Shown: positions 30,401 through 57,518 of the stretch, piece by piece
Layout of the letters: every line of letters starts with the position of its first letter
How positions within the stretch are numbered: position 1 is the stretch's first letter
Source of the DNA: an uncultured Gemmatimonadales bacterium
Lineage (GTDB): Bacteria > Gemmatimonadota > Gemmatimonadetes > Gemmatimonadales > GWC2-71-9
Assembly (NCBI GenBank): GCA_963730185.1
Contig: CAVSQW010000008.1
Coordinates: 192,001-256,000 of the forward strand
Direction: 5' to 3'
Length of the DNA: 64,000 bases
Notes under the pieces: generated by a model
Database searches by the model: none
What the model saw: only the letters and a program-made list of their open reading frames with translations
What the model was told of the DNA's origin: nothing
Translations under genes and position numbers: made by a program

Positions 30401-30545
30401 ACTGGTTCCGCGGCCCGGGTTTCCAGCGGGTCGATTTCAGGTCTCCCAGCCGCTGCCGATACTTGCACATATCGCCGGCACTGGGGGCCTCCCTCCAGAG
30501 CGTCCCCTCGACCTCAGTCAGCCGGCCCGTCGGAGGAGACCGACG

Positions 30546-31280: not shown

Positions 31281-31282
31281 CC

Positions 31283-32185: not shown

Positions 32186-33140
32186 CGTCGCCGTCGCCGA
32201 GCCGCTTCAGGTGCTGTTGGTGGAGGACAACTCGGACGACGCCCTCCTGTTCAGCGGCACCTTCGGAGGGCAAGGGCCGGGGGCCTTCGCGGTCACCCAC
32301 GTCCCCTCCCTGCAGGAGGCGGTCCGCGCGATTGGGGAGCGTCCGCCGGACATCATCCTGTTGGACCTTGGGCTTCCGGACTCCGACGGCCTCGATACCC
32401 TGGCTCGGATGCTCGAGGTGACCCATTCGATCCCGATCGCGATCATGACCGGTCGAGACGACGACGACGCGGCGCTAATGGCGGTGCGGGCCGGGGCCCA
32501 GGACTATTTGGTGAAGGGCTACGCCGACAGCCGGACCGTGAGTCGGGTTCTCCGCTATGCGATCGAACGGCATCGGTTGGTGAACGAGCTCGAGGAGGCC
32601 CGACGCCGCGAAGCCTTCCGGGCCACCCACGATGCCCTGACCGGTCTCGCCAACCGGAGCCTCTTCTTCGACCGCCTCGGACACGCGCTGGCGCGAGTCG
32701 GCCGGTATGCCGAATCGTTCGCGGTCGCATTCTTGGATGTCAACGACTTCAAGACGATCAACGATCGTCACGGGCACGACGGAGGTGACCGGGTGCTCCG
32801 GGTGTTGGCCGAACGCCTTCGCCGGACCACTCGAGCGTCGGACACCGTGGCCCGGGTCGGCGGCGACGAGTTCGCGATCGTGATCGAGCGGGTCCAGCGG
32901 GCCGACGCGGACCAGCTGGTGGCCGCGATGATGGAGCGGATTCAGGAGCCGATCGTGGTAGAGACGACGACGCTGTCGCCGACCTTGAGCTACGGCGTGG
33001 CGCACCATCCGGAGGACGGCCAAGATGCCCGGGAGCTGCTCAAGGCCGCGGACGACGCGATGTATCGGATGAAACGGCGGGTCGGCTCCCGAGTCGGGGG
33101 CGCGACCTCGCCGCCGAGCGAACGCCCTAGCTGTAATTGA
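32178..33140 (+). CDS. REC-GGDEF diguanylate cyclase
   Basis: REC, HDALTGLANR, LDVNDFKTIND, RASD I-site and intact GGDEF. The last codons and the stop lie inside the IS end. Confidence 0.92.
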   Translation: MGSVAVAEPLQVLLVEDNSDDALLFSGTFGGQGPGAFAVTHVPSLQEAVRAIGERPPDIILLDLGLPDSDGLDTLARMLEVTHSIPIAIMTGRDDDDAALMAVRAGAQDYLVKGYADSRTVSRVLRYAIERHRLVNELEEARRREAFRATHDALTGLANRSLFFDRLGHALARVGRYAESFAVAFLDVNDFKTINDRHGHDGGDRVLRVLAERLRRTTRASDTVARVGGDEFAIVIERVQRADADQLVAAMMERIQEPIVVETTTLSPTLSYGVAHHPEDGQDARELLKAADDAMYRMKRRVGSRVGGATSPPSERPSCN

Positions 33141-34166
33141 TGAGGAGGTTGTTCACTGAGCCGTAGCGCTGCAAGATGGGGTTTGTCGAGAACACTCAAC
33201 CGGCAAACGCCAGAGGACTCAGTGAACCAGCACAAGTTAGCACGGTTAACACCGGTAGGGCGGCAGGGGATGGTGCGGCGGTTGGAGGGGGGCGAGGGGG
33301 TGGCCCGGGTGGCCCGGCAGCTGGGCCTGAGCACGACCACGGTCCGGCGGTGGTGGCGGCGGTATCAGCAGGAGGGGGTCGCGGGCCTGGCGGATCGCTC
33401 GAGCCGACCCCACCGGTCCCCGCGGGCGACGCCCCGGTGGCGGCGGCGCCAGATTGCCCGGCGCCGGGCAGCACGGCGCAGTTCGCTGGAGATCGCGGCC
33501 GAGCTCCGGGTCCCGCTCTCCACGGTGGTGCAAGTCCAGCGGCGGCTCGGGTGGCGGCGGCTCTCGCCCCTAACGCCGAAGCCCCCGGTCTATCGCTATG
33601 AGCGCCGGGTCCCGGGCGCGCTGGTCCACCTGGACATCAAGAAGCTGGGGCGGATCGGCCGGATTGGGCACCGGATTCATGGCGATCGTCGGACGCGGGT
33701 GCGGGGCATCGGCTGGGAGTACTTGCATGTCGCGATCGACGATGCGACCCGGGTGGCCTACGCCGCCTTGCTGCCCGATGAAACGGCGACGAGCACGGCC
33801 GCCTTCCTGCAGACCGCCGTGGCGTGGTTTGCGGCGCAAGGGATCCGGTGGCGCGCCCTGATGACCGATAACGGCGGGGGCTACCGCAGCCACCGGTTTC
33901 AGGCCCTGCGGCGGCAGCTCAAGATCCGCCACCTCTGGACCCGGCCGTACACGCCGCGCACCAACGGCAAGGCGGAACGCTTCATCCGGACCTGCCTGGC
34001 CCGCTGGGCCTACGCGGCGGCCTACCGGACCTCGTTGGTGCGGGCCCGACACCTGCCCGAGTGGCTGCGATATTACAATCAGGAGCGCCCGCATACGGCG
34101 CTGGGCTTCCAAACCCCGATGCAGCGACTGGCGGCGAAATCGTGAACAACGTCCCCATCAACAACA
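33132..34166 (+). mobile_element. Complete IS481-family insertion sequence (1035 bp)
   Basis: 25-bp TIRs TGTAATTGATGAGGAGGTTGTTCAC and TGTTGTTGATGGGGACGTTGTTCAC (rc; 4 mismatches). 6-bp TSD CCTAGC at 33126-33131 and 34167-34172. Confidence 0.96.
33222..34145 (+). CDS. IS481-family DDE transposase
   Basis: HKLARLTPVGR, LADRSSRP, HLDIKKLG, AIDDATR, MTDNG, RTNGKAERF and YNQERPH. Confidence 0.96.
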   Translation: MNQHKLARLTPVGRQGMVRRLEGGEGVARVARQLGLSTTTVRRWWRRYQQEGVAGLADRSSRPHRSPRATPRWRRRQIARRRAARRSSLEIAAELRVPLSTVVQVQRRLGWRRLSPLTPKPPVYRYERRVPGALVHLDIKKLGRIGRIGHRIHGDRRTRVRGIGWEYLHVAIDDATRVAYAALLPDETATSTAAFLQTAVAWFAAQGIRWRALMTDNGGGYRSHRFQALRRQLKIRHLWTRPYTPRTNGKAERFIRTCLARWAYAAAYRTSLVRARHLPEWLRYYNQERPHTALGFQTPMQRLAAKS

Positions 34167-39689: not shown

Positions 39690-39703
39690 GTGTTGTTCCA
39701 GGT

Positions 39704-39733
39704 TGAAACCATTTGGACACGCCGTGCGTCCAA
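39704..39733 (+). promoter_or_regulatory. ECF-sigma-type promoter (TGAAAC-17-CGTC) upstream of the PBP gene
   Basis: TGAAAC at 39704-39709 and CGTCCAA at 39727-39733; matches the generic ECF AAC/CGT consensus. Confidence 0.55.
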
Positions 39734-39759
39734 TGAGATATCGACGCCCGGAGTTCCTC

Positions 39760-41946
39760 ATGACGCTTAAGGCCGTCGCGACCCGGTCCCGCCAGGCGCT
39801 TGCCGCCGTCCGGACCCGACTCACGCTTGGTCGCATCGTCCGGTTCGCCTTCCTTGCGGGGCTGCTCGGCTTCGTCCTGGTGGCTCTCGAGGCCGCGGTG
39901 CGAGCCCGTCTCGGCGAACCCGAAAGTCGAATTCCCACCGCGATTTACACTCGCCCGTCCGCCTGGGGCGACGGCGACGAGACAACCCCGATCGCCATCG
40001 GCACCACCGGCCAGCCGGTGGCCGAGGAGCGGGTGCCGGTGGACCTGTCCAAGGTGCCCGACCGGCTGGTCCAGGCGGTGGTCGCGGTGGAGGACCAGCG
40101 GTTCTATGACCACCATGGGCTCGATCTCAAGCGGATCGGTGGCGCCCTGGTCGCCAACATCCGGGCCGGTGGGATCGCGCAGGGCGGGAGCACCATCACC
40201 CAGCAGCTGGCCAAGAACCTCTTCCTGAGCGCGGCCCGGACGCCCGTCCGGAAGATCCGCGAGGCGGCGATGGCGCTGGTGCTCGAGGCGCGGTACGACA
40301 AGTCGGCGATCCTCGAGGCCTATCTGAACGAGGTGTACCTGGGCCAGGATGGCGCGCGGGCGATCCACGGGGTCGGGGCCGCCTCGCGCTACTACTTCGG
40401 CAAGAGCGTGAGCCGGATCTCGTTGCCGGAGGCGGCGACGTTGGCCGGGATGATCCAAGCGCCCAATCGATACAACCCGACTCGGAACGAGCGTTGGGCC
40501 CGCCAGCGCCGCAATCTGGTTCTCGGCCTGATGGCCGATCAGGATCGGATCAGCCGGCGTACCGCGGAGCAGGCCGAGCGAGCCCGAATGGCGACCCGGG
40601 CCCATTCGGCGCCGGGTTTGGATGCCCGCTACTTCCGCGACCTGGTGCTGGCCCGGCTGCCCGGCCGCCTGCCTCGTCGCGGCGCGGCCGTGTACACCAC
40701 CCTCGACGCCGGGTTGCAGCGCGCCGCCGAGCGGGCCATGAGCCAGGTGCTGCCCCGGCTCCGGACCCGCGGAGCCCAGGGCGCCCTGGTCGCGATCGAT
40801 CCCCGGACCGGCGACATCCTGGCCCTGGTGGGCGGCCGGGACTACGGCGAGTCGCAATTCGACCGGGCCACCGACGCGCGCCGCCAGCCGGGCAGCGCGT
40901 TCAAGCCGATCGTGGCGCTCGCCGCGCTCCACCGTGACGGCGACGATGCTCCGGCGTTCACCCTGGCCTCGCGGGTGGAGGACGAGCCCCTGAGCGTCGC
41001 CTCCGGTGGCAAGCAGTGGCAACCGACCAACTACGATCGCTCCTATCGGGGCGAGGTCACCGTCCGGCAGGCCATCGAGCAATCGTTGAATGTGCCGTTC
41101 GCCCGGATCGGCCTCGCGGTCGGCCCGGACCGGATCGTGAAGACCGCCCGCCGGCTCGGGATGACCAGCGACCTGCACCCGGTGCCGAGCCTGGCGCTCG
41201 GGAGCTCGGAAGTGAGCCTGCTCGAGCTGGTTCGGGCCTACGGCGTGTTCGCGACCGAGGGCCGGCTGGCCGCGACTCGGCTGGTGCTCGGACACTCGTC
41301 GTTAGGCAGCGGGTCCGGCCTCCCACCCAACGGCGGTCCCCCCGAGCTGACCCAGGTGGCGTCGCCGGCGGAGACCTACCTGGTCACGTCGGCGCTCGAA
41401 GGGGTGGTGGCGCGGGGCACCGGTCGGGCCTTGAGTGCGGCCGGCCGCTTCGGGGGCGTGGCCGGCAAGACCGGAACCTCCAACGACTGGCGCGACGCCT
41501 GGTTCGTGGCCTACACCCCCTCGCTGGTGGTCGGGGTCTGGGTGGGCTTCGACGACGGCCGGAGCCTCGGGCTCACCGGCGCCGACGCGGCGCTGCCGGT
41601 CGTGGAGCGGTTTCTGGAGGGGGTCGACCCGGCCGATCGCTGGGAATCGTTCCCGGTGCCGGACGGGATCGAGGTGGCCCAGGTGGGCGGCGGCGACGAC
41701 GGCTGGTCGTTTGACTGCGGCACCCGCGAGGTGTTCCTCGAGGGCACGGCGCCCCGGAGCGAGTGCGGCGAGTTCGATTCCTCGGACTGGGAGCAGCGGG
41801 TCAGCCAATGGCAGGATCGGGTGCAGAGTCGGGCCAGCCGGTTGGTGGCGCGGCTCCTGGAGCGACTCCGCGATCGGGACGACCACGGCCACGCGGGTCG
41901 CAACCGACCGGACGACGGGCGAATTCGGGTCAGGTTCCGACCCTAG
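39760..41946 (+). CDS. Class A penicillin-binding protein (transglycosylase + transpeptidase, PBP1b-like)
   Basis: TM, EDQRFYDHHG, GGSTITQQL, RKIRE, YLNEVY, SAFK, SLN and KTG. Confidence 0.93.
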   Translation: MTLKAVATRSRQALAAVRTRLTLGRIVRFAFLAGLLGFVLVALEAAVRARLGEPESRIPTAIYTRPSAWGDGDETTPIAIGTTGQPVAEERVPVDLSKVPDRLVQAVVAVEDQRFYDHHGLDLKRIGGALVANIRAGGIAQGGSTITQQLAKNLFLSAARTPVRKIREAAMALVLEARYDKSAILEAYLNEVYLGQDGARAIHGVGAASRYYFGKSVSRISLPEAATLAGMIQAPNRYNPTRNERWARQRRNLVLGLMADQDRISRRTAEQAERARMATRAHSAPGLDARYFRDLVLARLPGRLPRRGAAVYTTLDAGLQRAAERAMSQVLPRLRTRGAQGALVAIDPRTGDILALVGGRDYGESQFDRATDARRQPGSAFKPIVALAALHRDGDDAPAFTLASRVEDEPLSVASGGKQWQPTNYDRSYRGEVTVRQAIEQSLNVPFARIGLAVGPDRIVKTARRLGMTSDLHPVPSLALGSSEVSLLELVRAYGVFATEGRLAATRLVLGHSSLGSGSGLPPNGGPPELTQVASPAETYLVTSALEGVVARGTGRALSAAGRFGGVAGKTGTSNDWRDAWFVAYTPSLVVGVWVGFDDGRSLGLTGADAALPVVERFLEGVDPADRWESFPVPDGIEVAQVGGGDDGWSFDCGTREVFLEGTAPRSECGEFDSSDWEQRVSQWQDRVQSRASRLVARLLERLRDRDDHGHAGRNRPDDGRIRVRFRP

Positions 41947-42115: not shown

Positions 42116-42166
42116 TCGAGCACCTTGGGGAATGTGCCGGGTCAGGGCCGTCTCCAAGGTGCTCGA
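42116..42166. promoter_or_regulatory. 13-bp perfect inverted repeat enclosing a GGAA-16-CGTC ECF-like motif
   Basis: TCGAGCACCTTGG (42116-42128) and CCAAGGTGCTCGA (42154-42166). GGAA at 42129, CGTC at 42149. Confidence 0.55.
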
Positions 42167-42196
42167 GTCGCACCCGTCGCCTCATCGCGGAGCAGC

Positions 42197-43129
42197 ATGT
42201 CGGCCCCACGCCTCGACCCGGAAACCCTGGCCTCGTACCTGGACGGTCGGCTGACGCCGGCCGAACGGGAGCGGGTGCTCGAGATTCTGGCCGAGTCGCC
42301 GGCGGACTACGAGGCGATGCTGGCCACCGCCGAGGTGATGCGCCAGGTGGGCCGGGATCTGGTGGTCTCGTTGCCGGAACCCAGAAGCCGTTTCAACCGC
42401 CGCTGGCTGCTGGTGGCGAGCGCGACGGTCCTGGTCACGATCATCGCGTCGATGGTGTCGCGGCGAGTCTACCGGGCCGATGCCGGGCCGCCCCGGCTGC
42501 TGGCCGCCGCGCTGGACCTGGCCCCCGGGATGGGGCCCGGCAGCCTGGCCCGTCGCCTGGGTCCCGACTGGGTTGAGCCGGCCTGGCCCGTCACCCGGGG
42601 CGGCTCGCCCACGCTGCCGGACCGGGCGACGAGCTTTCGGGTCGGAGCCCGCCTGGTGGACCTCGAGGTCGCCATCCATGCCGAGGACCCGGCCCCGCTG
42701 GGCCGGTTGGACGAGGACTTGGCCCGCCTCGCGGGGCAGGTGAGCGGTGGCGGCGCGGTCGCGTTTCGGTTCGGCGCGCTGCGGAACGCCCAGCGCGACC
42801 CGGCCGACCCCGAGCGGATCCGGGCTGCGGCGGCGGCGCGGAGCCTCGTCGGGGCCTCACCCTGGTTCGACGTTGGCGCCTGGGTCGAAGCGGCCCGCCT
42901 CGCCCTGCTGGTGGACCGGGTGGAGTTCTTCGCCCCGGCGGGCCCGGCCGCGGGCCTCCTTCCGGGGGTGATCTCCGGTCTGGCGGGGGCTCCGGCCGAG
43001 CCGGCCAAGGCCGCGTCGGCGGCTGCCCTGCGCGCGATCGAGACGCTGAGCCACCGGACCGATCCCTCACCCACCGCCGCCGAGTACCGTGTCCTGGTCG
43101 ACACCGTCCAGGCCGAGGGAGCCCGTTAG
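42197..43129 (+). CDS. Anti-sigma-like bitopic membrane protein (zf-HC2-like N-terminus without Zn ligands)
   Basis: LDPETLASYLDGRLTPAERERVLEILAESPADY, then TM WLLVASATVLVTIIASMV, then a ~220-aa outer domain. Confidence 0.7.
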   Translation: MSAPRLDPETLASYLDGRLTPAERERVLEILAESPADYEAMLATAEVMRQVGRDLVVSLPEPRSRFNRRWLLVASATVLVTIIASMVSRRVYRADAGPPRLLAAALDLAPGMGPGSLARRLGPDWVEPAWPVTRGGSPTLPDRATSFRVGARLVDLEVAIHAEDPAPLGRLDEDLARLAGQVSGGGAVAFRFGALRNAQRDPADPERIRAAAAARSLVGASPWFDVGAWVEAARLALLVDRVEFFAPAGPAAGLLPGVISGLAGAPAEPAKAASAAALRAIETLSHRTDPSPTAAEYRVLVDTVQAEGAR

Positions 43130-46085
43130 GCGGCTCGTCCTCGCTCTGGCGCTCCTCGGCGCCCTCGCCTGCCGCCCGGAGACGCCCCCGTCGTTCCGGG
43201 CCCGGGTCGGCGCGGCGTTGGGTGATCGTCAGCCGGCGGGCCTGCGGCTGCCCCTGAGCGCCCCGCACCCGCCCCAGCTCGATCGCCTGACCATCCTCGG
43301 CGCCGAGCTGCACGCCACGCTCGAACGGCATCCCAGTCTCGATGCGGTGCATGCCGCCGCGGTTCTCGACCTGGCCCTGACGCCGGCCCAGGCGGGAGTC
43401 GTGGACCGGGCCGCCAGCCGTCTCGGCGAGGTCGTGGCCCGCCGGCCCGACGATGTGGCGGCTCTGGTGGACCTCGCCGCCGCCCGGGCGCTGCAGGGGA
43501 CGCTCCACCGATCGGCCCGGTATCGATTCGAGGCTCTCGAGGCGGTCGAGCGGGCGGCGGCGCTCGACAGCGCCAACCCCGTCGTGCTCTACGATCGGGC
43601 CCTGCTCCTCGATCGCGCCGGCCTGAACGGGCTCGCGGCCTCGACCTGGCGCCGGTATCTCGACGCCAGGCCCGCCCCGGCCGGCGCGGCGACGGCCCGC
43701 GATCGGCTGGCGGCCCTGGTCGAGCCGGGCCGGGGAGTGAGCGTGCGGGAGCGGGTGGTGGATTCGCTGCTGCCCGCGTGGGCGGAGGCCGTCCGCCGCG
43801 GCCGCGAGGATCGAGCCGATCGGCTGTTCCTCGAGGCCGACTCGTTGGCCGAGGAGGCGAGTCTCCGGGGCGATTCGACCGGGTATCACGCGGTCGCCGC
43901 GGTGGCCGGCGCGGGCGATCGGACCCGAGTGGCCGAGGGCTTGGCCGCCTACGCCGACGGCTGGGCCCGCTATCATGCCGGCCGTTTCGAGCAGGCCGTC
44001 GGGCCCTTGGCCCGGGCTGACCGGCTCTTGGCGCCGACGCCCGAACTGGCCGTCTGGCCCCGCCTGCTGCTGGCGGCGGTGGCCCTCTATCGGCGCCGGT
44101 ATCCGGAGGCGCTCGACACCTACACCGCGATCGCCGAGGCGGCCGCCGTCCGGAGCGATCGGAGCCTCCGGGCTCGGGCGGCGGTCGGAGCCGCCCTGGT
44201 CGAGGCCCGGACCGGGCGGATGGATCGGTCCGCCGATTGGTACGCCGTCGCGGCGACGGCCCTGGTCGGGCTCGACGAGCCGGCGTCGCTGGGGAGCGTC
44301 CAGTCCCAGCAGGCGGAGATCGACTGGTATCGGGGCCTCGACGATCGGGCCCTGGCCGCCGCCGAACGGGCCATCGTCCGGCTGGGGGCAGGCCCGGCGG
44401 GCGACCTCCGGGAGAACGCGTTGGCCTCGTTAGGCAGCATGCTGGCCGACCTTCGGATGCCCAGGGCGGCGTTGGCGGTGCTGGCCGAGGGGACCTGGGT
44501 GGCCGATCAGACGGGTCGGGCCAAAGACCCGCCGGAGATGGCGGCCCGCACCGCCGAGGCGGCCGAGGCGCTCGGCCTTCGGGAGCTGGCCCGAGCCCGG
44601 ATCGCCGCCGGCCGGGGGATGGTCGCCGGCCTGTCGGACAGCCTGATGCGATCGCGGATCGCGGCCGACCTGGACCGGGCCGAAGCCGGCCTCCTGGCGG
44701 AGGACGACCCGGCCGGCGCGGCGGCTCGGTTGGACCGGGTGGTGCGGTATTTCGAGGCGGGGTACGAAGTCGCCCTCCCTCCGGTCCTGGTCCGCCGGGC
44801 GGCGGCCCGGCTCGCCGCCGGCGACTCGGCCGGCGCCCGGGCCGATCTCGACCGGGCCGCCCGGTTGGTGGAAGCCCGCGCCGCCGACACGGGCGATCGG
44901 GCCGACCAGGCGGCGCAGCTCGAAGCGCGGGCCGACCTCTTCCACGCCCTCGTGGCGCTCGAGGTGGACCGGGGCGACACCTTGGCGGCCTTCCGAGAGG
45001 TCGATCGCTCCCACCCGGACGTGGGCCGGCCCGGCTCCCGCGACCCCTCGCCGCTCTCGCTGCCGTCCCGGCTCGCGCCCGACCTCGCCGTGGTCGAGTA
45101 CGCGGTGCTCGAGGATCGGACCGTCGCGTGGGTGGTCCGGCGCTCCGGCATCCGGATGGTCGTGACCCCGGTGGATCGGGCGGCCGAGCGGGCGCTGGTC
45201 GACCGGGTCGAGAACCTGGCCCGGCATCCCGGAGACGATCTCGCCGACGATCCCGCGGCGGCGCTCGTGGATCTGCTCATCACCCCGATCGAGCCGGCGT
45301 TGGCCGGCGTCCGGGAGCTGGTGATCGTCCCGGACGGGCTGCTCCGGCGGGTGCCCTTCGCCGCCCTGAGGCGGCGGTCGACGGGCCGCTTTCTGGTGGA
45401 GGATCTCGTCCTTCGGTTCGCGTCCCGGGCGGCCGACGTGGGCAACTCGAGACCCGCCTCGTGGGCGTCGCTCCGGCGCCGCCCCGTCCTGGTGGCCGGG
45501 CCGCGGTTCGACCGAGAGGTCTTTCCGGATCTCGACCCACTGGAGCACGTCGTCGAGGAGGTCGGAGGCATCGCGAGCATCTACCCGGCCGCCCGAACCC
45601 TGGCGCCCCGCCAAGCGACCCGGGCCGGCGTTCTGGCGGCGCTTCTCCACGCCAGCGTCTTCCACTTCGCCGGCCACGTGCGATCCCTCGATGTCTCGAC
45701 CGACGCGACCCATCTGGTGCTCGCCGAAGCGGCCGGCGGACTCCGAGCGAACGCCCTCTTCGGACGGGAAATCGCCCGGCTCGACCTCCGGGGGCTGGAC
45801 CTGGTGGTGCTCTCCGGGTGCGGGACGGTGGCGCGCGACCGGTCGGTGGGAGGGCTCAGCAGCGTGGCGCAGGCCTTTCTGGCGGCCGGCGCGGGCGGGG
45901 TGGTGAGCAGCCTCTGGGAGGTCGACGACCGCGAGACCGCCGAGCTGATGATCGACTTCCATCGGGCGCTGGCCGGGGGCGCGCCGCCGCCGCTGGCGCT
46001 GCAGCGGGCCCAGCGACTGGCGATTCGCCGCTCGGACGGCCGGGTGGCGGCGGCGTGGGCCGCGTTTCGATTCGAGGGTCGCTGA
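43089..46085 (+). CDS. TPR-like + CHAT (caspase-like, clan CD) protease with lipoprotein-type signal
   Basis: RRLVLALALLGALAC N-terminus and a long helical repeat region. CHAT motifs LVIVPDGLLRRVPFAAL, FHFAGH, VVLSGC, VVSSLWEVDD and WAAF. Confidence 0.88.
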   Translation: MSWSTPSRPREPVRRLVLALALLGALACRPETPPSFRARVGAALGDRQPAGLRLPLSAPHPPQLDRLTILGAELHATLERHPSLDAVHAAAVLDLALTPAQAGVVDRAASRLGEVVARRPDDVAALVDLAAARALQGTLHRSARYRFEALEAVERAAALDSANPVVLYDRALLLDRAGLNGLAASTWRRYLDARPAPAGAATARDRLAALVEPGRGVSVRERVVDSLLPAWAEAVRRGREDRADRLFLEADSLAEEASLRGDSTGYHAVAAVAGAGDRTRVAEGLAAYADGWARYHAGRFEQAVGPLARADRLLAPTPELAVWPRLLLAAVALYRRRYPEALDTYTAIAEAAAVRSDRSLRARAAVGAALVEARTGRMDRSADWYAVAATALVGLDEPASLGSVQSQQAEIDWYRGLDDRALAAAERAIVRLGAGPAGDLRENALASLGSMLADLRMPRAALAVLAEGTWVADQTGRAKDPPEMAARTAEAAEALGLRELARARIAAGRGMVAGLSDSLMRSRIAADLDRAEAGLLAEDDPAGAAARLDRVVRYFEAGYEVALPPVLVRRAAARLAAGDSAGARADLDRAARLVEARAADTGDRADQAAQLEARADLFHALVALEVDRGDTLAAFREVDRSHPDVGRPGSRDPSPLSLPSRLAPDLAVVEYAVLEDRTVAWVVRRSGIRMVVTPVDRAAERALVDRVENLARHPGDDLADDPAAALVDLLITPIEPALAGVRELVIVPDGLLRRVPFAALRRRSTGRFLVEDLVLRFASRAADVGNSRPASWASLRRRPVLVAGPRFDREVFPDLDPLEHVVEEVGGIASIYPAARTLAPRQATRAGVLAALLHASVFHFAGHVRSLDVSTDATHLVLAEAAGGLRANALFGREIARLDLRGLDLVVLSGCGTVARDRSVGGLSSVAQAFLAAGAGGVVSSLWEVDDRETAELMIDFHRALAGGAPPPLALQRAQRLAIRRSDGRVAAAWAAFRFEGR

Positions 46086-46093
46086 TCCCTTCG

Positions 46094-46126
46094 GGAAACG
46101 GAAATCGGCCCGTCGGGCCGTCCAAT
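46094..46126 (+). promoter_or_regulatory. ECF-like motif (GGAAACGGAAAT...GGGCCGTCCAAT) upstream of the post-CHAT gene
   Basis: GGAA at 46100 and CGTC at 46119 (15 nt apart). Shares GGGCCGTC with the 42145-42152 site. Confidence 0.45.
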
Positions 46127-46169
46127 TCCGGAGGACGTCGTCTCGATCCGCTCTCTCCAGCCCCGCGAG

Positions 46170-46907
46170 ATGCCCATGCCCACCAACGCCGCGCTCACCA
46201 TTCGAGGAGTGATCCTCTTCGATCTCACCGACATCACCCGGATCAAGTTGGTCTTTCCCGAGACCGTCGGGCCCTGGGTCGACTGCCATCACCAGTCGCG
46301 ACACGAGCCGATCCTCACCGTCTGGCACGACGGGACCAAGGGCGCTCAGGTCAAGATCCGGGGGATGGACCTGGTGGCCGCGACCGAACCAGGCCTCGTC
46401 GTGCCCCGTCTGTCGGGGCTCCCCGATTTTCGCCTGCTGAGCCCGCCCGGGGCGGCCCTCGACTCCGGCCTGGTCGCGTCGACCGGCCGGGTTGCGGCGA
46501 CCGTGACCTTGCCTGGCGGCAGTCTCGAGGCGACGAGTCTCTCGCCCGAGATCTGGACCTTCGGAGGAACCAGTCTGGGTCAGCTGGCGAGCGAGGTGAT
46601 CTGGACCGCGCCCAGCGCCGGGCCCGTCCCGCTCCTGGACTCGGCGGGGAAGAACGTCGTGACGCTTCCCCCGGGCGACCTCGTCGTGCTCGGGCACTTC
46701 GATCACCCGGACGACGCCAACAGTCCCAATCCGGTGCCCCATCCCTGCGCGCCGGTCGACGGCCAGGTCGCGGACGTAGATTTCGACTGGCTCAACGATC
46801 TCCTCGTCGGGAGGCCGAGCGGCCGACCGGTGCCGACCACGTCGCTTGGCGTCGCGATGCCGCGAAATCCCTTCACCTCGACCTGCTACGGCGGAACCTG
46901 GCCGTAG
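46170..46907 (+). CDS. Hypothetical protein (245 aa, beta-rich, C-terminal TCYGGTWP tail)
   Basis: Clean ORF with GC3-rich codons and non-shadow composition, directly after CHAT. No family recognised. Confidence 0.75.
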   Translation: MPMPTNAALTIRGVILFDLTDITRIKLVFPETVGPWVDCHHQSRHEPILTVWHDGTKGAQVKIRGMDLVAATEPGLVVPRLSGLPDFRLLSPPGAALDSGLVASTGRVAATVTLPGGSLEATSLSPEIWTFGGTSLGQLASEVIWTAPSAGPVPLLDSAGKNVVTLPPGDLVVLGHFDHPDDANSPNPVPHPCAPVDGQVADVDFDWLNDLLVGRPSGRPVPTTSLGVAMPRNPFTSTCYGGTWP

Positions 46908-46915
46908 GGAGGAGC

Positions 46916-47140
46916 ATGATCGACCTCATCGGGATCGTCGCCGTCGTGGGCGTGGTGGTCTGGCTCTTCGGGCGCCGGCGCCCGCCGGCCCGGTCGGCCC
47001 CGGAAGACGACCTCACCACTCCGGTCGACCGGGACGAGCTCGAGGACGCGGAGCGCGAGCTGGCCGACGACCCCGACCCCCGGTCTCTCCACGACGGCTG
47101 GGCCGACGACGAGGACGACTGGGGACCGGGCGCGGCCTGA
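46916..47140 (+). CDS. Small single-pass membrane protein with acidic tail (74 aa)
   Basis: GGAGGAG RBS; MIDLIGIVAVVGVVVWLFGRRR..DRDELEDAERELADD..DDEDDWGPGAA*. Confidence 0.7.
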   Translation: MIDLIGIVAVVGVVVWLFGRRRPPARSAPEDDLTTPVDRDELEDAERELADDPDPRSLHDGWADDEDDWGPGAA

Positions 47141-47250: not shown

Positions 47251-48628
47251 TCACCGATCCACCGGCAACCCGCTCGGCACCCGGCGCGGCACTACCCGGT
47301 CGAGATACCGGGCCCGCGGATCGGTCAGGGCCGACATGAAGGTCGTCAGCTGGTCCACCGTCTCCGGGGGCAGCACCACGCCGTCGATGATCGTGTCGCG
47401 GGTGACGAGGATCGCCGCGGCGGTCGGCTGGAGCGTGTTCTGGAGCAGCGGCTCCAGCCGGCTCGGGTCGAAGTCCTCGAGCTTGAGGTCGGACTCGCTG
47501 TAGTGATCGATGAAGTCGTGCAGCTGGGCGAAGGCACCGTCGTGACCGTAGGGGCCGGTCAGCTCCACGTTTCGGAGCGGGGTGGTCCGGAACAGGTAGC
47601 GGTCGCTGGTTCGTCCGGTGACCCGCATTCGACCGAAGTCGTCGCGGCCGTTGCTGCCGTCGCCCTCTCCCGGACCGAACTGGGCCAGCGCCACGTTGTG
47701 GAACTGGTTGTCGGTGAACGCCGGGCCGTTGTGGCAGATCGAGCACTTGATCGAGAGGAAGGTCTGGGCGCCGGCCAGCTGATCGTTGGTGAGGGCGCGA
47801 TCGTCCCCGGCCAGGAAGCGATCCCAGGGCGTGTCGGTGAACGTGAACTCGTCGATCAAGAAGCCGGCGATGGCGTTCGACGCGTGGGCGAAGGTCATCT
47901 TCCGGAACGGCGTGCCGGGGTAGGCGGCTTCGAAGAGTCGCCGGTAGGTCGGTGACCCGTCCCAGGCGATCCATCAGTCGTTGCCAGACCGCCTGGGGAT
48001 CGCTGTCGGGTACGGCCGCGAGCTCGTTGCCGCCGTCGCCCCGCATCTCCGACCGCGACAGCACCGGAAAGAGGCCCAGGGCTGAGGCGGGGCCGTATTG
48101 GAGCACTCGCTCCATGGCGGGCGTGATCGCGTTGCCGATCGGGGTCTGGAGGTGTCCGTGCGGGTCCTGCTCGACCCGGCCATCCCAGAAGAGCGACTGC
48201 AGGGCCGTGAGGTTGAAGAGCGACGGGGCATTTCGGGGGATGAAGGCTCCGGCCGGATGAGTTCGGGAGGGACCGAGGCCCAGGCCGCCCTGGCCGATCG
48301 CGAGGCTCCGGGCGTCACCCAGAGCGTAGGCCGGCAGGTGACACGTCATGCACGAGATGTCCCGGTTGCCGCTCAGGATCTTGTCGAAGGCCAGCGCCTG
48401 CCCGAGCTGCACCAGGCTGCGCCGGACGCGGGGTGTCCGGGGCATGGGTCCAATGCCCCGCTGTACGGCCAACTGCCGCACGACGGCGACCAGCGGATCG
48501 GCCGCCGGGCGAGAGGCCCGATTGAAATCCGGGGTGGGACCGAGCGGCTGCTGGTCCTGGCTGCCGCAGGCGGCGAACACCACGAGACAGGCCGTGGAAA
48601 CTACCCGGCCACGCTGACGCATCGACAT
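47251..48628 (-). CDS. Di-haem cytochrome c peroxidase/MauG-family lipoprotein; frameshift at ~47953
   Basis: Lipobox FAAC, LSGNRDISCMTCH, RNAPSLFN, FWDGR, CSICH and PLRNVELTGPYGHDG. Confidence 0.87.
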
Positions 48629-48752
48629 GGGAGCTACCTCCGGGGGTGCGGTCTGGTCTAAGAGGTAAAGCGGATTCGCGGGGCCAGGCCCGACAGACGG
48701 CTGGCGGTGGGGACGGAAGTCCGGCTGCCGGGTTGCCGGGCCGATCGCGGAC

Positions 48753-48932
48753 CGGGGCACCCTGGTCGACGGCCTCCTGACCGCGCCGGATCCGCTGGCG
48801 CTCCGCGACCAGCTTGAGCGAGGGATTCGGCCTATCGACGCTCGAGTGTTGCCCTCGCGCTACATCGAGGTGAACCTCGCGGCCTTTCGGCTCACGGCCG
48901 TCGCCGCCCGGCGCGACTTCAGTCACGGCTAG
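48753..48932 (+). pseudogene. Possible remnant of a YcbB-type L,D-transpeptidase
   Basis: Open frame with no start codon at its 5' end: ..LVDGLLTAPDPLALRDQLE..LPSRYIEVNLAAFRL..*. Resembles the YcbB RYILVNIPAFRL strand. Confidence 0.35.
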
Positions 48933-49182: not shown

Positions 49183-49590
49183 ATGACCGGCATCAAGGTT
49201 CCCCCTCGCCGCGGCTCCCGCCACGGCTCCGCCAAGCTCGACGAAGAGTTCGTCGCGCACGTGCGCCGCTCGGCGCATGAGATGGGGTACTACCCGGTCG
49301 CGCGGATCGCGCGGGCGAACGGGGTGACCTATCGCGCACTCAAGGACGCGCTGATCGGCAAGACCTACACCCACGTCGACCGGGTGGCGTCTCCCTTCCT
49401 GGGTCCGACCCGCAAGCCCTCGTCGGGCTGCGTTGTCCGGATCGACTCCGCTTCGACCCACGGGTGGCAGGCCCGGTTCCGGGGTCGTTCGAAGTTCTTC
49501 TCCGACGGCGTCCACGGCGACCAAGCCCTGCTCCAAGCCAAGACGTGGCTGGCCCGCCAGGCCGCCAACGCGCAGCTCCGTCCAGCCTAG
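49183..49590 (+). CDS. Small DNA-binding protein: HNH-associated-type HTH fused to an AP2-like domain
   Basis: RGSRHGSAKLDEEFV..IARANGVT..GKTYTHV followed by VVRIDSASTHGWQARF..KFFSDGVHG..AL.QAK.W. Alternative start at 49147. Confidence 0.62.
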   Translation: MTGIKVPPRRGSRHGSAKLDEEFVAHVRRSAHEMGYYPVARIARANGVTYRALKDALIGKTYTHVDRVASPFLGPTRKPSSGCVVRIDSASTHGWQARFRGRSKFFSDGVHGDQALLQAKTWLARQAANAQLRPA

Positions 49591-51953
49591 TCCGCGGCGC
49601 CCGTCGGATCGGGCATGATGGTGCCGATGGCCGGGGGCAGGGCGACGTTCGCCGCATCGCCGTGGCCGTTCGGTCGCCGCAGATCGGCCAGCGCGCCCCG
49701 CACCCGGTCCGATAGCCGGCGCTCCTCCCGGAGCAGCTCGATCAGGGTTTCGATCCGCCGGGACTCGAGCGGGAGGGCCGCCGCCTTGTCGAAGAGGTGG
49801 TCGACCTCGGCCTTCTGCGCCACCAACGTCTCCAACGCCGCCCGCAGGTCGCCGAGCAAGGCATCGGCGTAGGCCAGCCGCTCTTCGGCCGCCGCCAGCT
49901 GGCGTTGCCGGGCGTCGAGCGTGCCCCCCAGCGTGTCGGCTTCCTGCACCCGAGCCAGGAGTCGATCGAGCTCGGCCCGGGCCTGGGCGAGCTCCGGCTC
50001 GGCCTGAGTCAAGGCTCGCACGTTGACGAGCACCTGTTCCGAGAGTCCGTGAAGTCCTCGAATCTCCGCTTCCAGGCTGGCGATCCCGGCCCGCCGGGCG
50101 ACCGCGCTCTCCATGGCGCGGGCCAGCTGCTGTTCCAGGCCCCGCCATTCCACCAGACGGGCTTCGAAGCCGGTGATCCGGTCCTGGATGGTTCCCAGGC
50201 CGGCGATCTTGAGATCGAGCTCCCGAGTGCGCCCGTCGAGGGTGCCGACCCGCTCGTCCGCCCGGGCCAGCTGATCCTGGACCTCGCGGGTTCGCTGCGC
50301 CAGCGTCTCGGCCACGTCGGACGCCTCGGCCCGGAGGGTGGTGGCCCGGTCCAGGTGCTCGGCGGCCTGCCGGAGCGCCTCTTCCCGGCCGGCCACGTCG
50401 CGACCGAGCCGCTCGATCCGATCGGCGAGCGCTTCGAGGCCGCCGGTCCGTCGTTCCACGGCGCTCGTCGCGCCGTCGGCGGCCTTGACCCGTTGTTCGA
50501 GCGCTCGGGCGTCGGCAGCGAGGGTGTCGAGCTCGGCCTCCATCCGCGCCACCGTCTCGAGGCGGGGCAGCAGCTCGTCGACCCGCGTTTCCACGGTCGC
50601 CAGGTCGTCCCGGGTCCGGTCGAGCGAGGCGCGACCGTCCTGGATCTCGTCCAACGCCTGGCGGATGGCGTCTCGCCCGCCGGCGACGGCGGCGAGATCG
50701 CGCACGGCGTCGTCGAGGGTCGGCCGGGCTGCGTCGATCTGGGCCATCTGCTGGCTCAACCCGTCGAGGGTGGCCTGGAGGCGGTTGGCGTCGTCCCAGC
50801 CGGCCTTGGCACGGCTTGCCAGCTCGGAGACTTGGGCCAGGTCGGCCGCCACCTTCGAGACCTGGGCCGCAACGGCCTCGGCCTCCGCCGCCGAGGGCGC
50901 GAGGGTCTCCAGCCGCTCGGCGGTCTCGGCCAGGCGGGCGTCGGTGTCGCTCACGGCGCTGCGAAGGGCGGCCGTCCGGTCGGTCACCTGTTCGACACTC
51001 CGCCGCTCACTTGCCAGCAGCTCGGCTTGACGGCTCAGTTGGGCGTCGATCTCGTGCAGTCGGCGGCCCGCGTCCGACTGTCCCTTCTCGATGGTCTCGA
51101 GGCGGGTCCGGCTGGCGTCGGCCCGGGCGGCCTGGTCGACCTGCCGGGTGCCGGCCGCGTCGACCGCGGCGCCGAGCTCCGCGACCTGGCGGGCCAGCGC
51201 GGTTTGCCGCTCGATGCCGGCCTCCGCCTGCGCCATCATCGTGGTCAGCCGGTCGAGCGTCACGACGGCCCGATCGATCCCGTCCCGCTGCTGTTCGAGC
51301 ACCGCGACCTTCTGGCCCAGCTGGTCGGCCGCGGCGCGCGCGGCGCCGAGCTGTCGCTTCGTTTGCGCGATGGCCTCGGCGGTGGGGCCGAGGTCCATGG
51401 AGAGTTGCTCCAGGCCGGAGAGCCGGTTGTCGAGCTCGGCCACCCGGCGGGTGGCCCGGGTCCAGTCGGCGTGGAACGACTCGAGCTGCGCGGTCGCCGC
51501 CTGGTGCTGTCCGACGGTGGTTTCGTGCTGGGTCCGGAGCGTTGCGAGGTCGGCTTGGTGGCGCTCCAGCTGCTCGGTCAGGGTCAGGGCCTCGCCCTGC
51601 AGGGCGCGGAAGGGGCTCTCCAGTGCCAGAAACCCGTCGAGGTCGGTCTTGAGGGCCAGGGCCCGGTCGAGCGACTCGGTCAGGGTGGCGACCTGCTCGG
51701 CGAGTCGATCAGTGGCGGCGCGGGATTCGTCGAGCCGGCCGGCCAGCTCGGTCACCACCTCGAGCCTGGTCTCGGCCGCGGAGAGGCGGGCCGCCATGGC
51801 GTCGAGCTGCTCGAGCTGTTGGATCGATCGGTCGGCGTGCTGGACGAGGAGCTCGAGGTTGCCGCGGCGGGACTCGAGCTTGGCCGACATCTCGTCGAGG
51901 CGGGCGAGGTCGCGCGCGGGATCGCGGCGAAGGTTCTTGAGGAAAGACGCCAT
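49587..51953 (-). CDS. Long coiled-coil protein (788 aa)
   Basis: Continuous A/L/E/R/Q heptads; no Walker motif or TM segment seen. Confidence 0.8.
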   Translation of the reverse strand: MASFLKNLRRDPARDLARLDEMSAKLESRRGNLELLVQHADRSIQQLEQLDAMAARLSAAETRLEVVTELAGRLDESRAATDRLAEQVATLTESLDRALALKTDLDGFLALESPFRALQGEALTLTEQLERHQADLATLRTQHETTVGQHQAATAQLESFHADWTRATRRVAELDNRLSGLEQLSMDLGPTAEAIAQTKRQLGAARAAADQLGQKVAVLEQQRDGIDRAVVTLDRLTTMMAQAEAGIERQTALARQVAELGAAVDAAGTRQVDQAARADASRTRLETIEKGQSDAGRRLHEIDAQLSRQAELLASERRSVEQVTDRTAALRSAVSDTDARLAETAERLETLAPSAAEAEAVAAQVSKVAADLAQVSELASRAKAGWDDANRLQATLDGLSQQMAQIDAARPTLDDAVRDLAAVAGGRDAIRQALDEIQDGRASLDRTRDDLATVETRVDELLPRLETVARMEAELDTLAADARALEQRVKAADGATSAVERRTGGLEALADRIERLGRDVAGREEALRQAAEHLDRATTLRAEASDVAETLAQRTREVQDQLARADERVGTLDGRTRELDLKIAGLGTIQDRITGFEARLVEWRGLEQQLARAMESAVARRAGIASLEAEIRGLHGLSEQVLVNVRALTQAEPELAQARAELDRLLARVQEADTLGGTLDARQRQLAAAEERLAYADALLGDLRAALETLVAQKAEVDHLFDKAAALPLESRRIETLIELLREERRLSDRVRGALADLRRPNGHGDAANVALPPAIGTIMPDPTGAAD

Positions 51954-52206
51954 CGATGCTGTCCCCCGCGCAAGAGTCGGCAGTGTCCGGAAAGACGGCT
52001 GGCACGCGCCGCGAATCGCGAGGTGAAATGCAAGGTTGAGGCCGGTGGGCGCGGCCGGATCGGTCGGGGGGACAACCGGCGGCGGCGCACTGCGATAGAT
52101 TGGGGGGCCGAACCACGGCCGACCACCCGGGTGGTGGGGGCCGGGACAGGCATTTCGCGGTCCGGTTTGGTATCGTCAACGCATGAATGTCGAGATTTCG
52201 AGGGCC

Positions 52207-55221: not shown

Positions 55222-55336
55222 GCAGACGGGGTGCGGGCCGGTCCGTCGGGGGCCGGCCCAGCCGGGCCCAGGGGTCGCGCTCGCCCCGAGGGCCCGGGCG
55301 GTGCTAGGTTCCAGCCTTCTCGAGCGAATTCGACGA

Positions 55337-56593
55337 GTGATCAACGGAATTCTGGAGCTCACGGACCGCGGTGTCGGTCACCTCCGCCGGCGGGAAGCCG
55401 GCTACGCGCCCGAGGCGGGCGACCTCCGGGTCGACGACCGCGTCATCCGCGCGCTCGGTCTCCGGTCCGGCGACGAGATCGTCGGCGAGCTCGGGGACGG
55501 CAGTGCCGTTCCCGAGCCGGGGCCGGCGGCCGAGGCGGACGGCGAGCGAGGGCAGGGCCGAAGCCGGCGCGGCCGGGGGCGGAACCGCCGTCGGCGGGGC
55601 GGTGATCGGAGCGGCGGTCGCGGCGAGGGCTCGCGGGGCGGCGGCGGACCGGCGCTGGTGCGGGTCGTCTCGATCAACGGCCGCAAGCCGGAGGAGCTGG
55701 GCGAGCGCCGCCAGTGGGACCGGCTCGGGGCCGTGCACCCGAACGAGCAGCTCCGCCTCGAGTGCCCCCTGATCCGTCGGGGCCAGCCGGACTACACCAC
55801 CCGGGTCATCGATCTGCTCTGTCCGCTCGGCAAGGGGCAGCGAGCTCTGGTGGTGGCTCCCGCCAAGGCGGGCAAGACGATGGTTCTCCAAGCGATCGCC
55901 GAGGGCATCCTCACCAACAATCCCACCGCGACCGTATTCATCCTGCTGGTCGACGAGCGGCCGGAGGAGGTCTTCGAGATGGAGGCCGCCGGCTTCGGGG
56001 AGGTGGTGGCTTCGAGCTTCGATCACCCGCCCGCCCGTCACGTGGCCTGTGCCGAGCTGCTGCTCGAGCGGGCCCGGCGCCGGGTCGAGCTGGGCGAGGA
56101 CGTGGTCTTGATCGTCGACTCGATCACCCGCCTGGCTCGGGCCTACAACGCGGTCGTGAAGGGCACCGGCCGCACCCTCTCGGGCGGGCTCGACGCCCAG
56201 TCCCTCGAGCGCCCCAAGCGCTTTCTCGGCAGCGCCCGAAAGGTCGATGCCGGGCAGGGAGGCGGCTCGCTCACCATCATCGCCACGGCGCTGATCGATA
56301 CTGGCAGCCGGATGGATCAGCTGATCTTCGAGGAGTTCAAGGGCACCGGCAACAGCGAGCTGGTGCTGAGCCGCGATCTGGCCGATCGCCGGGTGTTCCC
56401 GGCCATCGACATCGTCGCGAGCGGCACCCGCCGCGAGGAGCTGTTGCTCTCGGAGGAGGCCCTTGGCGTGGCTCGGCAGATCCGGCAGCGGATCGGCAGG
56501 CAGACCCCGCTGGCGGCGATGAACGACCTGCTCGTCGATCTCAAGCGGAGCCGCTCCAACGCCGAGCTGATTGCGCAGCTGGCCGGCCGCTGA
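55337..56593 (+). CDS. rho: Transcription termination factor Rho, atypical short form
   Basis: PLGKGQRALVVAPAKAGKT, LVDERPEEV, DSITRLARAYN, TLSGG, FEEFKGTGNSE and SGTRREE. Confidence 0.92.
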   Translation: MINGILELTDRGVGHLRRREAGYAPEAGDLRVDDRVIRALGLRSGDEIVGELGDGSAVPEPGPAAEADGERGQGRSRRGRGRNRRRRGGDRSGGRGEGSRGGGGPALVRVVSINGRKPEELGERRQWDRLGAVHPNEQLRLECPLIRRGQPDYTTRVIDLLCPLGKGQRALVVAPAKAGKTMVLQAIAEGILTNNPTATVFILLVDERPEEVFEMEAAGFGEVVASSFDHPPARHVACAELLLERARRRVELGEDVVLIVDSITRLARAYNAVVKGTGRTLSGGLDAQSLERPKRFLGSARKVDAGQGGGSLTIIATALIDTGSRMDQLIFEEFKGTGNSELVLSRDLADRRVFPAIDIVASGTRREELLLSEEALGVARQIRQRIGRQTPLAAMNDLLVDLKRSRSNAELIAQLAGR

Positions 56594-56726: not shown

Positions 56727-57518
56727 ATGTCTCCTCTCTCGCGCGGCCTGGGCCCGGGTCAGCACGACTCTCACCGGCTCTTTCTGGCCGCTCTTCCCGC
56801 CATTCGGCGAATCATCGGCGTCCTGGCTCGTCGTTACGACCTCGAGCCCGCCGACGCGGAAGACTTCGCCTCCTGGAGCGTCGTCCGGCTGCTCGACGAC
56901 GACTGCGCCATCCTCCGGCGGTTTCACGGTCGGAGCGCGCTCGCCACCTACCTGATGGCGGTGATCTGCAACCTGTTCCGGGATTATCGGAACGCGCAGT
57001 GGGGCCGCTGGCGCCCGTCGGCGGCGGCCCGCCGCCTCGGACCGTTAGGCATCGAGCTGGACCGGCTGATCAATCGCGACGGGATCGGCGAGGAGCAGGC
57101 TGCCCGGCTCCTGGCAGAAGCCCGGCGCGGACCCGAGGCCGAGCTCCGGCGGTTGGCTCGCTCGCTGCCCCGCCGGGTCCGCCGTCGCGAGGTCGGACCG
57201 GGGGCGCTCCCGCTCGCGGTGGCGGCGGAGACGGCCGACGACCGGATCGATCGCGAAGAGGCCGAGCGGGCCCGGGCCCGGGCGCTGGAGGCGATGCGGA
57301 CCGTGATCGGCGCGCTGCCGCTCGAGGAGCGCCGGATTCTCCAGATGCGATACTGGGAAGGCCGTTCGATCGCCGACGTGGCCCGGGCGCTCCACTTGGA
57401 GCAGAAGCCGCTCTACCGGCGGCTCGAGTCGATTCAACGGCGCCTCCACCAGGCCCTGCTCGCCCTGGGCGTCGACCGGAGCTGCGCCGCCCTGGCGCTG
57501 GAGCTCGATCGGGCCTGA
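56727..57518 (+). CDS. Atypical sigma70/ECF-like sigma factor
   Basis: Region 2: DAEDF..RFHGRSALATYL..NLFRDY. Region 4: LPLEERRILQMRYWEGRSIADVARAL. Extended linker WGRWRPSAAARRLG. Confidence 0.85.
   Translation: MSPLSRGLGPGQHDSHRLFLAALPAIRRIIGVLARRYDLEPADAEDFASWSVVRLLDDDCAILRRFHGRSALATYLMAVICNLFRDYRNAQWGRWRPSAAARRLGPLGIELDRLINRDGIGEEQAARLLAEARRGPEAELRRLARSLPRRVRRREVGPGALPLAVAAETADDRIDREEAERARARALEAMRTVIGALPLEERRILQMRYWEGRSIADVARALHLEQKPLYRRLESIQRRLHQALLALGVDRSCAALALELDRA

Follow-up and report, generated by a model that had tools for sequence, protein, structure and literature searches.

Can an exported caspase-like protease and a membrane-bound anti-sigma-like protein, made from separate genes, together govern a sigma factor without clustered regularly interspaced short palindromic repeats (CRISPR)? 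The question is raised by a group of genes at 42116–47140 of a 64,000-nucleotide stretch of DNA from an uncultured Gemmatimonadales bacterium (contig CAVSQW010000008.1, positions 192,001–256,000; the whole stretch is called the window below). The genes encode an anti-sigma-like protein (a), a lipoprotein with tetratricopeptide repeats (TPR) and a CHAT protease domain (b), a protein of no recognised family (c) and a small acidic membrane protein (d). An original prediction, made from the sequence, took them for an undescribed circuit in which (b) cleaves (a) and frees a sigma factor of the extracytoplasmic function (ECF) type. Judged by sequence comparison, (a), (b) and (c), together with a sigma gene located elsewhere in the window, are the host copy of a conserved four-gene module of soil Gemmatimonadota and Acidobacteriota. 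The (a)-(b) system is likely a split, zinc-less version of the DdvA/DdvS switch of Myxococcus xanthus. What is new is the distinct subtype of the module, the large unnamed family to which (c) belongs, and the detachment of the sigma gene from the rest of the module.

Gene order in the window and in related loci

The coding frames were identified by the G+C content of third codon positions (the window has 70–77% G+C). This upholds four co-oriented genes, and with a preceding gene for a class A penicillin-binding protein they make up five consecutive same-strand genes between 39.7 and 47.2 kb (Table 1). In the window (a) has no sigma gene beside it. In a genome of the same genus (G001), a 3.2-kb contig carries a sigma gene (257 amino acids, aa), followed by a homologue of (a) with 39% identity and then by a TPR lipoprotein with the leader LISLLALAC. 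The sole homologue of this sigma factor in the genome of the window is encoded at 56727–57518 (43% identity, E 1.7e-46). It passes the TIGR02937 model (55.9 bits against a cut-off of 42.9, residues 18–244); with Pfam, region 4_2 passes (27.7 against 25.7) and region 2 stays under its cut-off (14.6 against 24). The protein is a divergent ECF type, with a long linker between sigma2 and sigma4 and with the family motifs WGRWRPSAAARRLG and LEQKPLYRRLE. The ECF-like sigma factor that the predicted circuit called for thus has a gene, but neither beside (a) nor within the span that had been flagged.

A scan with a sigma profile, using one genome per GTDB species, gave 156 relatives, of which the best 80 loci were analysed by running our own hidden Markov models (HMMs) over their six-frame open reading frames (ORFs), with a threshold of E ≤ 1e-30 for CHAT. 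The loci come from Gemmatimonadaceae, Longimicrobiaceae, other Gemmatimonadota and Acidobacteriota (Vicinamibacterales and Thermoanaerobaculia). Of the 74 loci with at least 1.2 kb of downstream flank, 69 have an (a)-like gene directly 3' of the sigma gene; of the 51 with at least 5 kb, 38 contain a CHAT gene. The CHAT ORF hits, 48 in number, are co-oriented and downstream (24), convergent (17) or upstream (7). Where the CHAT gene is complete and there is room past its 3' end (34 loci), a (c)-like gene abuts it in 32, at the 3' end in 30 and on the 5' side in two (L076 and L100), while L095 and L113 have none; 28 of the 30 are so placed by strict distance, and L067 and L085 miss that rule through overlapping stop-to-stop ORFs. 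The gap between the CHAT gene and the (c)-like gene is at most 64 nucleotides in 27 of 31 pairs, and 84 nucleotides in the window. The co-occurrence of the genes, sigma included, which the prediction had proposed as a check, was thus borne out in the 80 loci for (a), CHAT and (c) at these frequencies. In some related loci a gene for a pro-kumamolisin/subtilase or a Peptidase_C14 caspase stands beside the module (L049, 2076–3809; L051, 1985–3631; L052, 10883–11749).

The host genome is a metagenome-assembled genome (MAG) with a completeness of 81.8%, and was compared with 21 genomes of the same genus and with a phylum sample of 401 genomes. A homologue of (a) is present in one of the 21 same-genus genomes and a homologue of (c) in none; a sister lineage carries, on a 157-kb contig, copies of (a) and (c) that are 81% and 79% identical to those of the window. 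In the phylum sample, 14 genomes encode a member of the (c)-like family: the 13 that have full-length matches to the (a) family, and G137, where an (a)-type N-terminus is located 1.1 kb from the (c)-like gene. No CHAT gene lies within 7 kb of the sigma/(a) pair of G422; the (c)-like hits of this genome, three in all, are found elsewhere, each directly after a CHAT gene. The closest linkage is therefore that of CHAT with (c), and modules dispersed in this way also occur outside the window.

The sigma gene of the window directly follows a gene for a Rho paralogue, an arrangement found in none of the 21 same-genus genomes; here, therefore, it lies apart from the other genes of the module. The Rho-like ATPase itself (55301–56593, + strand) has a Gly/Arg-rich insert, and every genome of the genus encodes two Rho paralogues, which share about 75% and about 53% identity with it. 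Around Rho and around (d), gene order among the same-genus genomes is too poorly conserved for a rearrangement to be reconstructed, and searches for repeats around the a-b-c block or the sigma gene gave chance GC-rich matches only.

A promoter model was learned from the upstream regions of 80 related sigma genes (L065–L144) and scored against shuffled sequences. The motif obtained, TTGATG-N16-GTACGTT, is sigma-70-like rather than ECF-like and exceeds the 99th percentile of the shuffles in 48 of the 80 regions, about 55–110 nucleotides upstream of the start codons, which suggests constitutive transcription with post-translational control. Before (a), (b), (c) and the sigma gene of the window the model finds nothing significant; the best site before (a) scores 8.6, under the 95th percentile of the shuffles (9.8). 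Scans of the window genes with the model and with a consensus found no promoter, the consensus scan returning one unrelated site. The ECF-like motifs that had been noticed before (a) and (c) were recovered by neither approach.

Table 1. Genes of the module and its immediate surroundings in the window
Feature	Position	Strand	Basis
Class A penicillin-binding protein	39703–41946	+	Transgly and Transpeptidase domains
(a) Anti-sigma-like protein, 310 aa	42197–43129	+	Third-codon-position GC frame
(b) TPR-CHAT lipoprotein, 998 aa	43089–46085	+	Third-codon-position GC frame, Pfam CHAT
(c) All-beta protein, 245 aa	46170–46907	+	Third-codon-position GC frame, family HMM
(d) Small acidic membrane protein, 74 aa	46916–47140	+	Third-codon-position GC frame
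ECF-type sigma factor, 263 aa	56727–57518	+	Homology to G001 sigma, TIGR02937

The proteins encoded by the four genes

Gene (b) overlaps (a) by 41 nucleotides in another frame and has its own lipoprotein-type leader, RRLVLALALLGALAC, which ends in LLGALAC with Cys28 at 43170–43172; the GTG at 43089 is the sole in-frame start codon ahead of this leader. The CHAT domain is recognised by Pfam PF12770 (E 1.7e-48, 166 bits against a cut-off of 24, residues 721–993). The catalytic residues, His863 (45675–45677) and Cys911 (45819–45821), have their codons exactly where the prediction had placed an intact dyad, and both are invariant in all 37 homologues of (b), which argues for retained catalysis. 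A strict lipobox expression matches 20 of these 37 homologues, although two of the matches look false. Most of the others, the window protein included, have lipobox variants or an N-terminal hydrophobic anchor (by eye; four could not be judged). The lipobox-like leader that had been proposed, and the signal peptide that was to be checked at the N-terminus of the CHAT protein, correspond in the window protein, as judged by eye, to a hydrophobic leader ending in Cys28, and export leaders are conserved among the CHAT proteins. The host genome contains a second CHAT-domain gene (G000:C7:646180-647034), in an open frame of 557 aa scoring 201 bits.

The AlphaFold model of (b) has a predicted local distance difference test (pLDDT) value of 86.6 and a predicted template modelling score (pTM) of 0.83. 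It contains helical repeats at residues ~61–640, followed by the CHAT domain at ~655–998. When the model is compared with the Protein Data Bank (PDB) by Foldseek, the best match is DdvA (8rw5; E 2.6e-17, template modelling (TM) scores of 0.56/0.63, 983 aligned columns, 18% identity), and the second is again DdvA (8rot_A; E 7.2e-17, 990 columns). Separase and Csx29 follow with E about 1e-12 (7e-12 for Csx29) and TM-scores of about 0.3–0.4. By sequence (b) has no matches in the PDB, and its similarity to DdvA is below detection by phmmer. As modelled, (b) alone corresponds to the entire periplasmic module of DdvA.

Protein (a) has an N-terminus of anti-sigma type, LASYLDGRLTPAERERV, including LASYLDGRL...ER, and a single hydrophobic, transmembrane helix (W70–S88, 42404–42460), in agreement with the bitopic protein that had been described. 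The match to zf-HC2 is weak (E 0.017, under the Pfam cut-off), and in the (a) family this model is reached by two of 41 members, at best with 7.1e-5. The N-terminal domain is helical; its first 60 residues contain neither Cys nor His, so the H-x3-C-x2-C motif of zinc-binding anti-sigma (ZAS) domains is absent. Searched by sequence against the PDB, (a) has no matches. The helix is followed by an outer domain of ~220 aa, in which the segment W125-x4-W130-x3-R134-G135 (42569–42601) is conserved, R134 being invariant in 41 sequences; as a speculation, (a) might be recognised or cleaved here.

Protein (c) matches no Pfam or NCBIfam model and has no signal peptide. Its model (pLDDT 82, pTM 0.84) is all-beta. 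Foldseek gave nothing in the PDB at E ≤ 1e-3 and VIA-align, in wide and second-look searches, no match with Z ≥ 2. We take this to mean that no structural neighbour of the model was detected: zero beta-sandwich matches are odd, the tool may have missed some, and the result does not establish a new fold. In the ESM Atlas the best score is 0.80, to unnamed clusters that are uninformative.

A protein of ~270 aa without a Pfam match recurs directly 3' of the CHAT genes in the related loci. An HMM seeded from these other loci only, with the group of the window excluded, recovers (c) over its full length (E 1.8e-14 in the first iteration and 4.5e-19 in the second, in a small ORF set). The hhalign comparison of (c) with eight (c)-like proteins reached a probability of only 52%, and homology was settled by the iterated HMM. 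Four residues (G13, H45, P222 and C239) do not vary among 41 members that were aligned; none of the 41 has a Pfam match, save for one stray. The (c) gene, rightly listed as encoding a protein of unknown type, thus belongs to a family conserved beside CHAT genes, and on the profile evidence (c) is a genuine conserved partner in the module.

Among 1.84 billion representatives of clusters defined at 50% identity, the (c)-like HMM finds 4,076 clusters at E ≤ 1e-3, 2,143 at E ≤ 1e-10 and 395 at E ≤ 1e-30; the sampled ones, where named at all, are called 'hypothetical protein'. Nearly all members begin directly with the domain. N-terminal extensions are present in eight of the 150 best representatives, and five or six of these eight carry twin-arginine leaders (P0030, P0040, P0045, P0051, P0155 and P0106, one with a lipobox), so at least some (c)-like members are exported folded. 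In the sister lineage the gene call for the copy that is 79% identical to (c) (P0002, on the 157-kb contig) continues into the frame of (d) to give a 320-aa product, a sign of an indel or frameshift there, close to where (c) ends.

Protein (d) consists of one hydrophobic, transmembrane helix and a tail with 19 acidic and four basic residues. Its gene is preceded by a strong Shine-Dalgarno sequence, and the product matches nothing in Pfam or NCBIfam. Homologues of 46–70% identity are present in 14 of the 21 same-genus genomes, all 14 of them without (a) and (c), and in one (G015) the gene adjoins a homologue of a coiled-coil gene that is found at 49587–52175 in the window. For both reasons (d) is assigned to the genomic backbone and not to the module: the small acidic membrane protein is there as predicted, but it does not belong to the cluster.

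Known relatives and a proposed mechanism

To our knowledge, no sigma switch with a TPR-CHAT module other than DdvA/DdvS has been characterised. According to its description from 2024 (PMC11506125), DdvA fuses a zinc anti-sigma domain, a transmembrane helix, a linker and a scaffold-TPR-CHAT portion; autoproteolysis by CHAT is proposed, followed by cleavage by RseP and release of DdvS. In the model given there, the periplasmic module provides steric shielding from RseP and the active site is 'incomplete', and DdvA-like proteins are reported only from Myxococcota and one Comamonas species (PMC11506125). The structures of DdvA, determined by cryo-electron microscopy, are PDB entries 8ROT and 8RW5. 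A fused relative with the same proposed logic has thus been known since 2024 (PMC11506125), and the system is not wholly 'undescribed', as had been suggested.

The module of the window resembles DdvA/DdvS in having an ECF-type sigma factor, a single-pass anti-sigma-type protein and an extracytoplasmic scaffold-TPR-CHAT portion with a His/Cys dyad. Shared too would be the order of events as proposed for DdvA, a CHAT-dependent site-1 step and then intramembrane proteolysis. However, DdvA is one chain, while the window encodes two polypeptides, with (b) anchored by its own lipoprotein-type leader. The CHCC zinc site of DdvA is absent from (a), which adds the ~220-aa outer domain, without a counterpart in DdvA. 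The sigma factor of the window has its long sigma2-sigma4 linker, the module adds the conserved gene (c), and its neighbours, as far as scanned, include no genes of CRISPR or of the cyclic oligonucleotide-based antiphage signalling system (CBASS). The module is found in Gemmatimonadota and Acidobacteriota.

A second arrangement is present in another genome of the same genus (G007; L061, 7149–12248), with genes for an ECF sigma factor, a 187-aa ZAS anti-sigma factor, a TPR-CHAT lipoprotein and a 287-aa lipoprotein-like protein. Sigma factor, short membrane anti-sigma factor and separate TPR-CHAT lipoprotein follow each other, and the reading as a split DdvA applies here as well. The two arrangements differ in that G007 has a canonical ECF sigma factor (the region 2 model passes), a zinc-type anti-sigma factor (HLAECDAC) and a lipoprotein after CHAT, whereas the window has the zinc-less 310-aa (a), the long-linker sigma factor and a signal-less (c)-like partner; their CHAT domains are about 33% identical. 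The module of the window is therefore a second subtype of the split module, distinct from that of G007. The G007 locus had also been considered as encoding a fused anti-sigma-TPR-CHAT protein; this was rejected, as the ORF listing gives two genes in different frames.

Two further systems connect CHAT proteins with sigma factors. In the type III-E CRISPR craspase, the TPR-CHAT protein Csx29 cleaves Csx30, releasing the sigma factor RpoE, as reported (PMC10028731). Csx29 is likewise a TPR-CHAT protease tied to sigma control via proteolysis of a partner of the sigma factor, but it is cytoplasmic, activated by RNA and bound to Cas7-11, while (b) is exported and has no CRISPR genes nearby. Its structural match to (b), with the TM-scores given above, is far weaker than that of DdvA. 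In the published contexts of ECF54, CHAT, subtilase and carboxypeptidase genes lie near an ECF sigma gene and an anti-sigma factor is said to be lacking (PMC8999054). The likeness consists in an ECF sigma factor with a CHAT neighbourhood and proposed proteolytic control; by contrast with that description, the family of the window has its anti-sigma-like gene in 69 of 74 loci. In the literature searched, passages of PMC11506125 included, no description was found of split TPR-CHAT/anti-sigma modules, Gemmatimonadota included.

The central claim of the original prediction, a CRISPR-independent link of an anti-sigma-like protein, an envelope TPR-CHAT protease and an ECF-type sigma factor, is strengthened by the gene order in 80 loci, by the invariant dyad and by the match to DdvA. 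The reading that we favour, with chances that we judge to be about even, is that (a), (b), (c) and the distant sigma factor are a module in which the exported (b) acts on (a) to free the sigma factor. In this scheme (a) would bind the sigma factor and hold it inactive at the membrane. On a signal, (b) would clip or dislodge the outer domain of (a) in trans, in place of the self-cleavage proposed for DdvA, and a site-2 protease of the M50 family would then complete the release. Several M50-family proteases are encoded in the host genome; as the family is ubiquitous, they add little. Protein (c) may bind (b) as a regulator, a co-sensor or a substrate, a physical partnership suggested by its near-obligate position beside the CHAT gene. 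Proteases held in check by a dedicated partner that is co-encoded or co-made include separase with securin and the secreted cysteine protease staphopain with its inhibitor staphostatin, which are possible models for (b) and (c) by analogy only.

A number of points weigh against this scheme. The sigma gene is ~10 kb from the a-b-c block and 13.6 kb from (a), a possible uncoupling, and it lacks a promoter of the family type by the learned model; the module in the window may be uncoupled or decaying. In 13 of 51 loci sigma and (a) have no CHAT gene within about 7 kb, and the Pfam scans made of nine of these 13 show unrelated neighbours. The 17 of 48 CHAT hits that are convergent to sigma-(a) point to separate transcription of CHAT-(c). 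Protein (a) passes no anti-sigma family cut-off, and its profile matched no solved anti-sigma factor among the PDB sequences. Protein (b) is exported but (c) has no signal peptide, so the two could form a direct complex only through an unexplained export route or before export. In DdvA itself, proteolysis by CHAT is a proposal rather than a demonstration (PMC11506125).

Several of these points would also fit the main alternative, a rather unlikely one, in which CHAT and (c) form a self-contained unit of an exported protease with its inhibitor or chaperone, or with its substrate or cargo. Such a unit would be a regulated output of the sigma/(a) pair, or would often just lie near it, but would not activate the sigma factor; the pair itself would sense another envelope signal. 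The adjacency of CHAT and (c) (32 of 34) is tighter than the linkage of sigma and CHAT (38 of 51), and G422 combines a sigma/(a) pair lacking CHAT within 7 kb with (c)-like genes that follow CHAT elsewhere in three of three cases. The convergent 17 of 48 CHAT hits would be separate transcripts, the (c)-like family is large (4,076 clusters), and in the window the a-b-c block is detached from the sigma gene. Nevertheless, DdvA, the closest structure to (b), fuses anti-sigma and TPR-CHAT parts in one chain, and in Gemmatimonadota the (c)-like genes are almost confined to genomes that have the (a) family as well (13 of 14). A search for sigma-type promoters upstream of the CHAT genes, which was not systematic, identified none.

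Less probable still is that (b) acts without cutting, its bulky TPR-CHAT body binding the outer domain of (a) and shielding it from other proteases until a ligand frees it, with the dyad serving another substrate or self-processing. The published model of DdvA, with its shielding from RseP and its 'incomplete' active site (PMC11506125), is in keeping with this, but His863 and Cys911 are invariant in the 37 homologues of the window subtype. The least probable alternative is a relic, in which a-b-c and the sigma gene were parted by rearrangement and no longer cooperate, or were parted by misassembly of the MAG: the sigma gene follows Rho in the host genome only (0 of 21 relatives), (a) and (c) are found in one and none of the 21 same-genus genomes, and a frameshifted gene lies next door in a genome that is 81.8% complete, but the four frames are intact with coding-type third-position GC, catalytic and family-invariant residues are retained, the sister lineage keeps (a) and (c) at 81% and 79% identity on its 157-kb contig, and trans-acting sigma/anti-sigma pairs need not adjoin.

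If (b) acts on (a) as proposed, the location of protease and anti-sigma factor on separate proteins makes the CHAT-dependent cleavage step of DdvA-type switches directly testable. The split version is widespread in abundant soil phyla, and control of sigma factors by TPR-CHAT proteins would reach well past Myxococcota. Once their role is defined (inhibitor, co-sensor or substrate), the (c)-like proteins would be a new component of bacterial caspase-like signalling. A bolder proposal, of which we are doubtful in this full form, is that a caspase-like lipoprotein serves as the trans site-1 protease of a zinc-less anti-sigma factor and is governed by the previously unrecognised (c)-like family, of apparently new fold and with invariant His and Cys, whose members would be partners dedicated to the exported TPR-CHAT proteases of several soil phyla.

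Other genes of the window

Downstream of (d), on the opposite strand, is a gene for a MauG/MbnH-like di-haem cytochrome c peroxidase (47251–48760), broken across two frames near 47973, with the N-terminal part at 47974–48760 and the C-terminal part at 47251–47973; the break is a frameshift or a sequencing error. An IS481-family transposase gene (rve, LZ_Tnp_IS481; 33144–34145, + strand) is located 8 kb upstream of the module. The region before it (23417–33140) is rich in signalling genes, with a PAS histidine kinase, a response regulator, a receiver-GGDEF protein and a 1078-aa CheB-CheR-PAS-histidine kinase fusion. An ORF of 2418 aa is present at 5907–13163. No RNA sequencing runs are listed as containing sequence of the window, and two soil DNA sequencing runs contain small shares of it.

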